Of a DNA stretch of 64,000 bases, positions 3,481-64,000 are shown in pieces. Position 1 is the stretch's first letter. The number at the start of each line of letters is the position of its first letter. This stretch comes from Limisphaerales bacterium (GTDB taxonomy: Bacteria; Verrucomicrobiota; Verrucomicrobiia; Limisphaerales; SXTU01), in assembly GCA_009773355.1 (NCBI GenBank), contig WRPG01000001.1, positions 270,529-334,528 on the forward strand, given 5' to 3'. The notes below the pieces were generated by a model that saw nothing but the letters and a program-made list of their open reading frames with translations, was not told the origin of the DNA and did not search any database. The position numbers were made by a program, and so were the translations under genes.

Positions 3481-3687
3481 GGTGTTGGTCGGGTTGAGTC
3501 AGCCAGGCACATTTGAGTTTCGGAACGTGCGCAGAGTGAGAGAGCGGCGCGGGGGATTCAATGCCGAAAGGCGGGACGCTACAAGCGCGGCCCTCCGGGC
3601 CGCAGAGAAGTGCCCCGCTCGGCACGCACTCAAGCATCTGCGCGCCGCATTACCCCCCAGCCTGCTGCGGCCCGGAGTGCCGCGCTC

Positions 3688-4949: not shown

Positions 4950-5023
4950 GGTGGGGCGAGCGTCCTCGCGAGCCGTTTCCCTACCAACCGAATGGCCCGG
5001 CTCGCGAGGACGCTCGCCCCACC
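4950..5023. repeat. Perfect 26-bp inverted repeat (REPIN-like hairpin) with a 22-nt loop
   Basis: GGTGGGGCGAGCGTCCTCGCGAGCCG (4950-4975) is the exact reverse complement of 4998-5023. Each arm contains its own small palindrome (GCGAG cgtc CTCGC). Confidence 0.95.
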
Positions 5024-10458: not shown

Positions 10459-10549
10459 GTGGAGTAACGGGGTGAAGGAGCGGTGGAGTGATGCACCGAA
10501 TTGAAGCATTGCCCCATCACTCCATAACTCCATCACCCCGTTCGCTCCA
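10459..10549. repeat. Imperfect palindromic element built from GGAGTnnn octamer units (family A, copy 1)
   Basis: Left arm GGAGTAAC GGGGTGAA GGAGCGGT GGAGTGAT. Core ATGCACCGAA. Right arm CATCACTCCATAACTCCATCACCCCGTT. A second copy lies at 43281-43364. Confidence 0.85.
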
Positions 10550-60764: not shown

Positions 60765-60857
60765 AACCACGGATGGACACGGATGGACACGGATAAGGCG
60801 TTGGGAAAGCGCGTTCGCGCTCTGTTCATCCGTGTTCATCTGTGTCCATCCGTGGTT
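60765..60857. repeat. ~93-nt hairpin with arms of GGATGGACAC decamer units, 17 nt upstream of the thrS ATG
   Basis: Left arm AACCACGGATGGACACGGATGGACACGGATAAG. Right arm CTGTTCATCCGTGTTCATCTGTGTCCATCCGTGGTT (about 30 of 33 positions complementary). Apical palindrome AGCGCGTTCGCGCT. Confidence 0.9.
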
Positions 60858-61785: not shown

Positions 61786-64000
61786 ATGTCCGCCACCACT
61801 CCCAGTTCCGACCGCGTCCGCGTGGACGGCAAGTTCTTCCGCCTCGGCGAGCAGAAGTTTTGCGCCAAGGGCGTGACCTACGGGCCGTTTGCGCTGGGCG
61901 AGGACAAGTCGCACTTCCCGCCACGCGCGCAGATGGAGCGGGACTTCCTGCAAATCCGCGAGCTGGGCGCGAACACGCTGCGCGTTTACACGATTCCCCC
62001 GCGTTGGCTGCTGGAGCTCGCGCAGGCGCACGGCCTCAAGCTGCTCGTGGACGTGCCGTGGTGGAAGAACGGCTGCTTCCTCGACAGCGCCGAGACGCGC
62101 GCCACCGCGCGCAAGGCCGTGGCCGATGCCGTCGCCGCCTGCGCGCATCACCCGGCGGTCTTTGCCTTCAGCGTGGTGAACGAAATCCCGCCCGACCTCG
62201 TGCGCTGGAGCGGCGCGGAGAAGGTGGCGGAGTTCATAGACGAGCTGGTGGCCGTGGCGAAGGACGTGGACCCGGAGTGTCTTTGCACGTTCGCCAACTT
62301 CCCGCCGACGGAATTCCTCCAGCCGCGCAACCTCGATTTCTTTACGTTCAACGTCTATCTCCACCACCCGAAGCCGTTCGACAACTACCTCGCGCGGCTC
62401 CAGATGATTGCGGACACGAAGCCGCTGCTGCTCGGCGAGTTTGGCGTGGACTCGGTGCGCGAGGGTGAGCCGGCCAAGTGCGAGATGCTGCGCTGGCAGA
62501 TCGAGACGGCGTTCAACTGTGGGGTCGCGGGCGCGGTGGTCTTCGCGTTCACCGATGACTGGTGGAAGGACGGGCATCAAGTGCTCGACTGGCACTTCGG
62601 CGTCGTGACGCGCGAACGGCAGGCGAAAGATTCCTTCGCCGTGGTGCGGGACGCGTTCAAGACCGCGCCGCACTTCCCGCTGCCGCGCTGTCCGAAAGTC
62701 AGCATCGTCGTGGCGAGCTACAACGGCGGCAAGACCCTGCCCGCGTGCCTCACCTCGCTGGAGCGGCTCAACTACCCGAACTACGAAGTCATCCTCGTGG
62801 ACGACGGCTCCAAGGATGACACGCAGCAAATCGTCGCGCGGTATCGGATGGAGCTGGAGGACCGGACGGTGGCGAAAGAGAGCGGAGCGCAGGTGTCCAA
62901 CCTGCACGATGAGGCTGAGCAGGGACGCGCAGGTTGGACACCTGCGCTCCGGCCGCGCTTCCGCTGCATCCGCCAGGTCAACCTCGGCCTCTCCGTCGCG
63001 CGCAACACAGGCATCAACGCGTCCGAAGGCGAAATCGTCGCGTTCACCGACTCCGACTGCCGCGCGGACGAGGACTGGCTGCATTACCTCGTCGGCGATT
63101 TGCTGCGCAGCGATTTCACGGGCATCGGCGGGCACAACTTTTTGCCGCCCGAGGACGGCTGGATTCCCACGGCGGTGATGGCGTCGCCGGGCGGTCCCGC
63201 GCATGTGATGCTCACCGACCGCCTCGCCGAGCACATCCCGGGCTGCAACATGGCGTTCTACAAGTGGGCGCTGGACGAAATCAGCGGCTTCGACCCGATC
63301 TATCGCAAGGCCGGCGACGACGTGGACGTGTGCTGGCGGCTGCAACAGCGCGGCTACAAGATCGGGTTCAGCTCGGCGGGCTTCGTCTGGCACTACCGGC
63401 GCGCGACGGTGAATGCTTACCTGAAACAGCAGCGTGGCTATGGCGAGGCCGAGGCGTTGCTCGTGCGCAAGCACCCGGAATACTTCAACGACATCGGCAG
63501 CAGCATCTGGCGCGGACGCATCTACACGGCGGCGAAGATCGGCGTCGTGACGCGCGCGCCCATCATCTATCACGGCGTCTTTGGCAGCGCGTTCTTCCAG
63601 TCCATCTACGCGCCGGCTCCCTCGATGTTCCTGATGCTGATGACGAGCCTTGAATGGCATGTGCTCGTGACGCTGCCCTTGATGACCCTCGGTGTCGCAG
63701 GTGCGGGCGTGAAATTCCCGCTGCTGCTGCCGCTGGGCCTCGCGAGCGCGCTGGCGTCGCTGACGCTGTGCATCGTCGCCGGCAGGCAGGCCGAGATTCC
63801 CAAGGCCAAGCGCACCTTCTGGTCGCGGCCGCTCGTCGCGTGGCTCTTCCTCGTGCAGCCCATCATGCGCGGCTGGGCGCGCTACTCCGAGCGGCTCATG
63901 CTCCAGCAGACGCCGCTCTCCGCGCACGAGACGCTCGACACGCTCGACCTCAAGCGCCGCCGCGACGACCGCTTCGAGCTGGCCGGCTACTGGGCGGACT
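61786..64000 (+). CDS. Fusion protein, 3'-partial: N-terminal glycoside-hydrolase-like TIM-barrel domain + family 2 glycosyltransferase + C-terminal TM region
   Basis: I translated this by hand from the ATG at 61786 and found no stop up to the window end. It is absent from the ORF track because it is open-ended. GT2 motifs are VSIVVASYNGGKTL, ILVDDGS, FTDSDC and the QQRGYGE region. The N-terminus has GANTLRVY and NEIP. Confidence 0.85.
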   Translation, partial: MSATTPSSDRVRVDGKFFRLGEQKFCAKGVTYGPFALGEDKSHFPPRAQMERDFLQIRELGANTLRVYTIPPRWLLELAQAHGLKLLVDVPWWKNGCFLDSAETRATARKAVADAVAACAHHPAVFAFSVVNEIPPDLVRWSGAEKVAEFIDELVAVAKDVDPECLCTFANFPPTEFLQPRNLDFFTFNVYLHHPKPFDNYLARLQMIADTKPLLLGEFGVDSVREGEPAKCEMLRWQIETAFNCGVAGAVVFAFTDDWWKDGHQVLDWHFGVVTRERQAKDSFAVVRDAFKTAPHFPLPRCPKVSIVVASYNGGKTLPACLTSLERLNYPNYEVILVDDGSKDDTQQIVARYRMELEDRTVAKESGAQVSNLHDEAEQGRAGWTPALRPRFRCIRQVNLGLSVARNTGINASEGEIVAFTDSDCRADEDWLHYLVGDLLRSDFTGIGGHNFLPPEDGWIPTAVMASPGGPAHVMLTDRLAEHIPGCNMAFYKWALDEISGFDPIYRKAGDDVDVCWRLQQRGYKIGFSSAGFVWHYRRATVNAYLKQQRGYGEAEALLVRKHPEYFNDIGSSIWRGRIYTAAKIGVVTRAPIIYHGVFGSAFFQSIYAPAPSMFLMLMTSLEWHVLVTLPLMTLGVAGAGVKFPLLLPLGLASALASLTLCIVAGRQAEIPKAKRTFWSRPLVAWLFLVQPIMRGWARYSERLMLQQTPLSAHETLDTLDLKRRRDDRFELAGYWAD
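62884..62950. repeat. Perfect 22-bp inverted repeat (23-nt loop) inside the GT2 CDS
   Basis: GGAGCGCAGGTGTCCAACCTGC (62884-62905) is the exact reverse complement of 62929-62950. Each arm contains GCAGGT..ACCTGC. Confidence 0.95.

Follow-up and report, generated by a model that had tools for sequence, protein, structure and literature searches.

A palindromic insert in a Limisphaerales glycosyltransferase that is very probably a RAYT-associated REP doublet

Our analysis indicates that a perfect hairpin, embedded in frame in the GT2 domain of a protein from a Limisphaerales (Verrucomicrobiota) MAG, is very probably a REP doublet of the REPIN type, belonging to a RAYT-associated Verrucomicrobiota repeat family and carried as a passenger in a loop of the enzyme. 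Membership of the hairpin arms in a repeat family, together with the doublets of that family that flank RAYT genes, leads us to this identification. Against it stands the head tetranucleotide, GGAG, which is not the canonical GTAG or CGTC.

The host gene and its hairpin

The host gene starts with an ATG at 61786 and runs on the plus strand to position 64000, the end of the window (the whole 64-kb stretch of DNA analysed), which thus holds the first 738 of its 880 codons, the 3' part lying beyond. The translation is 100% identical to P0001, an 880-aa protein labelled as a glycosyltransferase of a Limisphaerales MAG. From the N to the C terminus the protein encompasses a GH-like TIM barrel, a GT2 (GT-A) domain and a membrane region, with Pfam matches to PF00535, PF13641, PF13632 and PF02836, and the PF00535 match is broken into two stretches by the insert. 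By structure search the N-terminal part resembles GH2/GH157 TIM barrels; the search of the PDB with the host protein returned only this barrel and nothing on the insert loop. Upstream of the insertion site lie strand beta2 and helix alpha2 of the GT2 domain (VILVDDGSKDDTQQIVARYR, 62788-62847, plus strand), which are conserved in all homologues and correspond to residues 333-340 and 346-351 in the AlphaFold2 model. Downstream, the conserved strand beta3 and the motif that follows it (PRFRCIRQVNLGLSVARN, 62953-63006, plus strand) are modelled as a strand at residues 391-397 and a helix at residues 402-412.

A preliminary description of this DNA had placed an in-frame peptide of 36 codons, RMELEDRTVAKESGAQVSNLHDEAEQGRAGWTPALR (62845-62952), between ...ILVDDGSKDDTQQIVARY and PRFRCIRQVNLGLSVARN, and the translation agrees with it. 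The exact 22-bp inverted repeat with a 23-nt loop that it reported at 62884-62950 was likewise reproduced, the 22-mer GGAGCGCAGGTGTCCAACCTGC lying at 62884-62905 (plus strand) and its reverse complement at 62929-62950, with 23 nt between them. Perfect pairing extends over 23 bp (62883-62905 with 62929-62951), and over 26 bp with 17 nt separating the arms when one mismatch is allowed. The 73-nt hairpin has a folding energy of -55.7 kcal/mol as RNA (z = -9.8) and, for each strand as ssDNA, of -34 to -36 kcal/mol. At three mismatches or fewer, the 64-kb window contains two matches to the arm, where dinucleotide shuffles predict 0.01; these are the arms themselves, and no further copy was found in the window.

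Resolved into its parts, the hairpin consists of a left REP unit (GGAGCGCAGGTGTCCAACCTGCAC, 62884-62907, plus strand), which differs from the family consensus only by an A for G at 62906, a spacer that forms the hairpin loop (GATGAGGCTGAGCAGGGAC, 62908-62926, plus strand), and an inverted right unit at 62927-62950 that matches the consensus exactly on the minus strand. The GGAG heads point outward, the arrangement of a tail-to-tail dimer. Two 24-nt units and the spacer give the doublet a length of 67 nt, and with its junction bases it amounts to exactly 23 codons, encoding the peptide GAQVSNLHDEAEQGRAGWTPALR. Of the 36 codons, only 23 (62884-62952) come from the REP doublet, whereas the 12 codons after the R (MELEDRTVAKES, 62848-62883, plus strand) are an older, clade-specific extension of the loop outside the REP element. 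In this extension, RME(L/F/C)(E/D)DR is common to all 26 closest homologues, and VAK(E/A/P)S is also found in L056, L057 and L067, whose inserts differ.

The hairpin is no product of misassembly: over 3,235 nt, hairpin included, the window sequence recurs without a difference in an independent Logan assembly (L146), and a relative that is about 9% diverged (L055) has a variant of the hairpin. Between the window and this relative, 1 of 46 arm positions and 3 of 21 spacer positions differ, the latter counted as the spacer plus one base on each side. No significant direct repeat flanks the window doublet: the score of 9.0 lies at the 95th percentile of cross-locus controls (maximum 10.5), and the best match is 9 nt long and 43-52 nt from the element.

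A dispersed repeat family and its transposase

Each arm of the hairpin is one 24-nt unit, GGA-GCGCAGGT-GTCCA-ACCTGCGC, that is itself a small hairpin; in the consensus unit, a stem of 8 bp closes a loop of 5 nt, with a folding energy of -10.5 kcal/mol as ssDNA (z = -5.3). At least 54 genome stretches contain the 19-mer core of the unit, which is present in at least 16 contigs of the MAG CAYIIH01 and at least 10 contigs of the MAG DATEKZ01. About 20 non-verrucomicrobial 19-mer matches, among the matches listed, were treated as chance; they are without the GGA head and sit in unrelated coding contexts, such as ABC-transporter motifs. The Verrucomicrobiota copies conserve the unit in full, GGAGCGCAGGTGTCCAACCTGCG(C), and are dispersed as singlets and as inverted doublets with spacers of 19-74 nt, at least 18 other doublets being found in related loci. 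Most copies adjoin the ends or starts of ORFs. A CRISPR array was rejected as a description of the family, as each 8-kb locus holds one unit or one inverted pair and no arrays.

The stem is preceded by GGA in 55 of 59 units. Four distinct compensated stem variants (GAT/ATC, GGA/TCC, CCGGT/ACCGG and CGGAT/ATCCG) occur among the 15 units that lie outside the selection imposed by the exact-match search, and these variants keep the hairpin within the unit, not the long stem between arms. By these variants, it is the unit hairpin that is conserved as a structure. The spacers of doublets differ among copies of the family, and comparison of each with its own flanks in either orientation found no similarity. 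None of the six frames of the unit contains a stop codon, and members of the same family lie in frame within two real genes, encoding a GH84 NAGidase (L001) and a PhoPQ-related protein (L010). Long ORFs that span copies in L007, L015 and L022 are rich in arginine and seem to be artefacts of reading GC-rich DNA in the wrong frame; they were excluded from the genic insertions. The source organism carries the unit at no fewer than two loci, the window and an intergenic site about 5.6 kb downstream of the gene, at the contig end, where a second exact unit is found (L146, 9271-9293).

Doublets of the unit also lie on both sides of an ORF in L021 that carries the motifs WVVMPNHVHAL and YIENNP. This ORF matches the NCBIfam model for REP-associated tyrosine transposases, NF047646, with 81.8 bits at a cut-off of 80, and also Pfam Y1_Tnp (PF01797, 1.5e-7) and the TnpA-REP structure 4ER8 in the PDB. 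In other samples (L059-L061) a RAYT that is 74% identical to that of L021 (P0121, with a weak precomputed match to PF01797) again has unit doublets on both sides, so that a RAYT gene is flanked by doublets of the unit in two independent genomes. A further RAYT, 62% identical, has flanking doublets with the same GGAGCGC head and a different stem. A motif scan of the 64-kb window, in itself a weak test, found no RAYT there. The RAYT, an IS200/IS605-like Y1 HUH transposase that acts on hairpins in ssDNA, presumably mobilises the unit family, and from these sequence associations we infer that the mobility of the doublet would likewise be RAYT-driven.

A separate observation concerns the singlets. 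In one related MAG, nine of them have flanking imperfect direct repeats of 29-37 nt, and the offset between the repeat copies is constant, at 66-72 nt. In one case an orthologue with a single target copy provides the empty site; the filled site reads as a 37-nt target, a 35-nt insert with the unit and the 37-nt target again, in frame in a GH84 gene. We put forward only tentatively, and with more doubt than conviction, that integration of a single unit of the family duplicates about 37 bp of target sequence. Transposition of the IS200/IS605 type, which serves as the model for RAYTs, makes no such duplication, and a duplication of this length would therefore point to a different route of REP integration. 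If true, integration would proceed with a fixed stagger of about 3.5 helical turns, candidate routes being CRISPR-spacer-like integration or hairpin-protected flap ligation at the replication fork. If general, the duplications around singlets would be a rare mechanistic clue to REP insertion.

The insertion site and competing explanations

The expectation that the two GT2 motifs normally lie close together holds within this family, as VILVDDGS and ARN stand 37-38 aa apart, meaning no insert, in 89 of 120 homologous proteins and 67 of 80 metagenome loci. Homologues without the inverted repeat do not share a conserved segment of the same length. The hairpin itself is seen in only two of about 39 insert-bearing sequences of the clade and in none of the insert-free ones; since nearly every orthologue lacks it, it is no conserved trait of the host gene. 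In other lineages the same loop holds at least five other palindromic doublets or REP-like inserts (L056, L070, L072, L099/L114 and L132) and, in L064 and L065, simple repeats. The AlphaFold2 model presents the insert as a disordered stretch between helix 346-351 and strand 391-397, with pLDDT below 50 for residues 356-387 only and an otherwise confident GT2 core. In a Rossmann-like fold, such a loop and the nucleotide-sugar site are on opposite sides. The proposal in the preliminary description that a REPIN-like element was inserted in a surface loop and is tolerated in frame is supported by the dispersed family, the cognate RAYT, the absence of the segment from most homologues and the low pLDDT.

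The doublet would have ended up in the DNA for the alpha2-beta3 connecting loop of the GT-A fold, where it is predicted to add about 23 unstructured residues. Its survival there may be explained by the disorder of the loop, the absence of stop codons from the unit, a length of exactly 23 whole codons and the prior lengthening of the loop in this clade. Most likely the doublet is a selfish or neutral passenger that probably has no adaptive role in the enzyme or in its mRNA. Its neutrality is presumed here, as is its route of arrival, whether by transposition or by recombination. The left flank of the doublet reads VAKES in the window and QPG in L055, and by overall distance the window gene is nearer to L056, which has another insert, than to L055. 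The same doublet in different left contexts, combined with this affinity to L056, suggests from sequence comparison that the locus has a history of replacement or recombination rather than of one simple insertion. The homologues compared include no clean empty site for the window locus.

The stability of the hairpin as RNA and the near-invariance of its arms in the window and L055, which do differ in the loop and the left flank, would suit an element kept for the host mRNA, acting through ribosome pausing, RNase III or RNase E effects, or separate expression of the GH and GT parts; transcribed REPs have been proposed to modulate mRNA stability (PMC3733652). The better conservation of the arms than of the loop, at about 9% gene divergence, could indeed reflect a function of the hairpin, but conserved arms are expected of any member of a RAYT-associated REP family, and the compensated variants maintain the small unit hairpin, not the arm-to-arm stem. 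Moreover, insert-bearing relatives other than the two with the hairpin have unrelated sequence or other repeat families at this position. No Rfam family reached its gathering score, the matches being generic miRNA-precursor hairpins (the best at 34 bits against a gathering score of 168) that were rejected as a known structured RNA, and there is no terminator-like T run, with zero terminator-like sites in 62500-63300. A conserved RNA role is not supported, and we regard retention for the mRNA as very unlikely.

Equally concerned with the locus is the idea of a hypervariable cassette, swapped between strains by homologous recombination and possibly under diversifying selection, in which the doublet arrived by allele transfer. 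The region from RMELEDRT to RPRFRCIRQ is replaced wholesale between genes that are 7-9% diverged, and the two left contexts of the one doublet and the nearness of the window gene to L056 also fit such exchange; however, sliding-window identity gives no clear signal of a recombination tract around the insert, with no sharp shift in the flanking 100-nt windows. Diversifying selection would have no obvious agent here, given that membrane synthases of this kind should have their GT2 domain in the cytoplasm and that the model shows a disordered insert. We consider a cassette of this kind unlikely, and it concerns only the route of arrival, leaving the identity of the REP doublet unaffected. That the hairpin is unique in the 64-kb window could, finally, suggest that it arose by local accident and is unrelated to mobile DNA, whether through template switching in replication that perfected a quasi-palindrome or through an error of assembly. 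Identical units at dozens of unrelated loci, where they also flank RAYT genes, the second copy in the source organism, and the recurrence of the hairpin in independent assemblies and in a diverged relative make such an accident extremely improbable.

Relation to known repeats and significance

As a REP doublet, the element shares much with the published REP/REPIN and RAYT systems (Nunvar 2010, PMC2817692; Bertels & Rainey 2011, PMC3116915; Di Nocera 2013, PMC3733652): a GC-rich imperfect palindrome, here 24 nt long and with a head conserved within the family, many dispersed copies, either single or paired as inverted doublets that form a single long hairpin, a RAYT gene with these repeats on both sides, the occurrence of heterodimers (here in the one genome DATEKZ01), and tail-to-tail dimers with variable spacers, a tendency also noted for published dimers (PMC3733652). 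REPs within genes have been reported, above all from Opitutus terrae (Verrucomicrobia) and R. conorii, and dimers or grouped repeats that encode 20-30 aa make up more than 50% of them (PMC3733652). The intragenic dimers of O. terrae, a member of the same phylum, likewise lie in ORFs and encode 20-30 aa; REP dimers in ORFs have thus already been published, and the kind of event described here is not new. The unit sequence and the host lineage (Limisphaerales and relatives), on the other hand, found no match in the REP literature cited. The head also differs, being GGAG(CGC) as opposed to GTAG, GTGG or CGTC, and GGAG is not among the degenerate heads reported (GYAG, GTRG and, in O. terrae, GTGG). 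Flanking duplications like those of about 29-37 bp around the singlets of one related MAG have not been described for REPs.

Bacterial MITEs (Correia, ERIC and similar) resemble the element in being short, non-autonomous repeats that can form hairpins and lie within transcripts. The window element was rejected as a MITE, being a 67-nt doublet of 24-nt units with no significant flanking repeat and with a Y1 HUH enzyme as the associated transposase. MITEs, by contrast, generate short target duplications. MITEs measure 70-300 bp, with TIRs of 15-30 bp recognised by the transposases of parent insertion sequences (PMC3733652). Rickettsia palindromic elements (RPEs) are similar in that they are palindromes in frame in genes, adding a peptide to proteins that are probably still functional (PMC3733652), but their sequence is unrelated, their end tag is CGTC, some are longer (RPE-1) and their hosts are alphaproteobacteria.

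Taken as a REP doublet, the odd 36-residue insert in a conserved glycosyltransferase would be selfish palindromic DNA read in frame, and neither a functional motif nor an RNA regulator should be read into it. At least six palindromic repeat families, along with microsatellite-like repeats, appear to have colonised this one loop independently in different lineages. The alpha2-beta3 loop of this GT2 family may be a recurrent landing pad in which several REP families feed new peptide sequence to the enzyme, and it would offer a convenient natural system in which to follow the tolerance of mobile hairpin DNA in coding sequence and the origin of disordered segments.

Position of the hairpin in the glycosyltransferase

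The window sequence carries GGAGCGCAGGTGTCCAACCTGC at 62884-62905 and its reverse complement at 62929-62950, and this exact inverted repeat lies in frame, as stated in the preliminary description, within a plus-strand GT2 glycosyltransferase gene that starts at 61786 and continues past the window end. The arms pair over 23 perfect bp, or 26 bp with one mismatch; 0.01 matches of this type are expected in shuffled sequence, and no further copy of GGAGCGCAGGTGTCCAACCTGC was found beyond the two arms within the 64-kb window. When the 73-nt hairpin is folded in isolation, the predicted energy is -55.7 kcal/mol for RNA (z = -9.8); for ssDNA it is about -35 kcal/mol, whichever strand is taken. An independent assembly, the source organism's Logan contig L146, is identical to the window over 3,235 nt, hairpin included.

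The full 880-aa product (P0001, from a Limisphaerales MAG of the Verrucomicrobiota) comprises a GH-like TIM barrel, a GT2 domain and a membrane region. In the window protein 73 residues separate the VILVDDGS and ARN motifs, against 37-38 in 89 of the 120 homologous proteins and in 67 of the 80 metagenomic loci; the shorter distance agrees with the short linker that the preliminary description gives for typical GT2 domains, and the insert does not belong to the GT2 fold. Most homologues lack an insert. The 26 closest ones (69-94% identical over the aligned protein) all carry, after YRME.EDR, an extension of 26-97 extra residues whose content and length are almost wholly different between genes only 7-9% diverged in DNA. 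The AlphaFold2 model of the host protein (89-sequence alignment, mean pLDDT 78.6) drops to pLDDT <50 exactly at residues 356-387, in the connection between helix 346-351 and strand 391-397. In a Rossmann-like GT-A fold the helix-to-strand connection and the nucleotide-sugar site are on opposite faces, and we infer that the window insert lies on the face away from that site.

The doublet spans 67 nt (62884-62950) and, with junction bases, adds 23 codons, GAQVSNLHDEAEQGRAGWTPALR; none of the unit's six frames contains a stop codon. Of the 36-codon stretch initially read as inserted, these 23 codons do come from the doublet, whereas the 12 preceding codons (MELEDRTVAKES) are an older extension common to relatives with other inserts. 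A relative about 9% diverged, L055, carries this doublet as well, with 1 difference in 46 arm positions and 3 within the spacer of 21 nt; the left flank there differs from that of the window copy. Overall distance places the window gene nearer L056, a relative bearing a different palindromic family (unit CTCCCTCACCCCGGCCCTCTCCCGCTGGGAGAGGG) that is also present elsewhere in the related loci examined. The same doublet beside another left flank, together with the nearness to L056, indicates that the history of the doublet at this locus includes replacement or recombination.

Other lineages have other REP-like doublets or small GC-rich hairpins in this GT2 loop (L056, L070, L072, L099/L114, L132 and the homologous protein P0047), or microsatellite-like repeats (L064 and L065), and the loop is a recurrent sink for repeats. 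One widespread palindrome distinct from the present family, CCCTCTCCC-N4-GGGAGAGGG then CCGGGGTGAGGG, translated PLPxGEGRGEG, sits in the same loop in close relatives; it occurs at L056 2555-2956, L057 5003-5284 and 3938-3957, L132, and L011 4786-4805, also outside the gene.

The unit family and an associated transposase

The search for other copies proposed in the preliminary description found at least 54 stretches with the 19-mer core (one genome per species), plus a second exact unit in the source organism. The latter is intergenic, about 5.6 kb downstream of the host gene; it falls within L146 9271-9299, and that contig ends 6 nt after it, as would be the case if short-read assemblies break at the repeat. 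Among the matches listed, at least 16 contigs of CAYIIH01 and at least 10 of DATEKZ01, both Verrucomicrobiota MAGs, contain the core, and others fall in Limisphaerales, Verrucomicrobiales and related MAGs. About 20 listed matches in unrelated phyla lack the GGA head, lie in ordinary coding sequence and look like chance.

The Verrucomicrobiota copies share a conserved unit, GGA-GCGCAGGT-GTCCA-ACCTGCGC, which by itself forms a stem of 8 bp closed by a 5-nt loop. In the loci examined the unit is scattered, either as a singlet or as an inverted doublet (spacers of 19-74 nt), and never in arrays. Counted only among the 15 units not picked by exact-match search, four double substitutions (GAT/ATC, GGA/TCC, CCGGT/ACCGG and CGGAT/ATCCG) keep the within-unit stem paired but put mismatches into the long arm-to-arm stem, a pattern of substitution which argues that the conserved structure is the small within-unit hairpin. 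Copies also occur in frame in a GH84 NAGidase (L001), as a singlet that separates the catalytic domain from the C-terminal one, and in a PhoPQ-related protein (L010), just past the signal peptide. In DATEKZ01 (L008, L014, L017, L018, L028, L039, L042) the doublets are systematic heterodimers of a GGT/ACC-stem arm and a GAT/ATC-stem arm, with spacers that begin alike, (C/T)GTTCGTGAGG; this pattern suggests that doublet and spacer replicate there as one unit.

Doublets of the unit lie on both sides of an ORF in the CAYIIH01 locus L021 that has the motifs WVVMPNHVHAL and YIENNP and matches the REP-associated tyrosine transposase (RAYT) model NCBIfam NF047646 (81.8 bits, cut-off 80), as well as Pfam Y1_Tnp and the E. 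coli TnpA-REP structure 4ER8. A RAYT 74% identical to it, from different samples, has the exact unit on both sides, and around one 62% identical the flanking doublets keep the GGAGCGC head and differ in the stem. A RAYT flanked by its own repeats is the defining REP-RAYT arrangement (PMC2817692, PMC3116915), and the REPIN-like reading of the preliminary description is supported by these flanking doublets. The head of this family is GGAG and not GTAG; published REP families include degenerate heads, such as GTGG in Opitutus terrae, and GGAG is not among them. On the minus strand of L021 (2295-4043), a single unbroken frame of 582 codons runs through a proline-racemase-like ORF, a REP doublet and the RAYT ORF; the upstream, proline-racemase-like gene has no stop codon ahead of the doublet.

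Several further inverted repeats were observed in the window. A second REP-like inverted doublet (3584-3686, arms AGCGCGGCCCTCCGGGCCGCAG / CTGCGGCCCGGAGTGCCGCGCT) separates convergent genes; read on the minus strand, its right arm is GTAGGAGCGCGGC..., with a GTAG head and then GAGCGC as in the glycosyltransferase-gene unit. At 4950-5023, in the intergenic region from which an aminotransferase-like gene and the next ORF diverge, an inverted repeat of 26 perfect bp (GGTGGGGCGAGCGTCCTCGCGAGCCG) encloses a 22-nt loop and resembles a further REP-doublet family. Long imperfect inverted repeats occur at 60765-60857 (tandem ACGGATGGAC units, upstream of a threonyl-tRNA synthetase-like ORF) and 10466-10542 (AACGGGGTGAAGGAGCGGTGGAGTGATG and its complement).

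Direct repeats flanking singlets

Nine CAYIIH01 singlets (L001 4600-4770, minus strand; L006, L010, L013, L023, L036, L038, L053, L054) lie between imperfect direct repeats of 29-37 nt, which start 1-17 nt from the unit and whose two copies are offset by 66-72 nt. Their scores are 10.5-26, and eight of the nine score 13-26; the highest score among 390 cross-locus controls was 10.5, which the weakest singlet, L053, only equals. L144, an orthologue of the L001 GH84 gene (86% identical, 24 aa shorter), contains the 37-nt target only once; the filled site in L001 and L145 consists of target + CGC + unit + CGGCGAGAA + target, adding 72 nt. Comparison with this empty site shows that the filled site in L001 is a 37-bp duplication of the target together with an insert of 35 nt, in frame. 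The REP/RAYT literature compared makes no mention of such flanking duplications, and IS200/IS605 elements are described as making none. Scoring around the window doublet against cross-locus controls found no flanking direct repeats.

Function and relation to published elements

No known RNA family, terminator or promoter was matched at the hairpin (Rfam; terminator scan of 62500-63300). The hairpin is missing from almost all orthologues, and a gene-specific regulatory role is therefore unlikely; its strong predicted RNA structure could nonetheless affect translation or decay. Some REPs lie wholly inside ORFs (Di Nocera et al. 2013, PMC3733652), most numerously in Opitutus terrae (Verrucomicrobia) and R. 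conorii; dimers or groups that encode 20-30 aa make up more than half of these inserts, and tail-to-tail dimers tend to have variable spacers (PMC3733652). The window element closely fits these intragenic dimers; the family member and the host gene are new, the kind of element already known. Most likely, the doublet is a passenger, selfish or neutral, in a loop that tolerates it.
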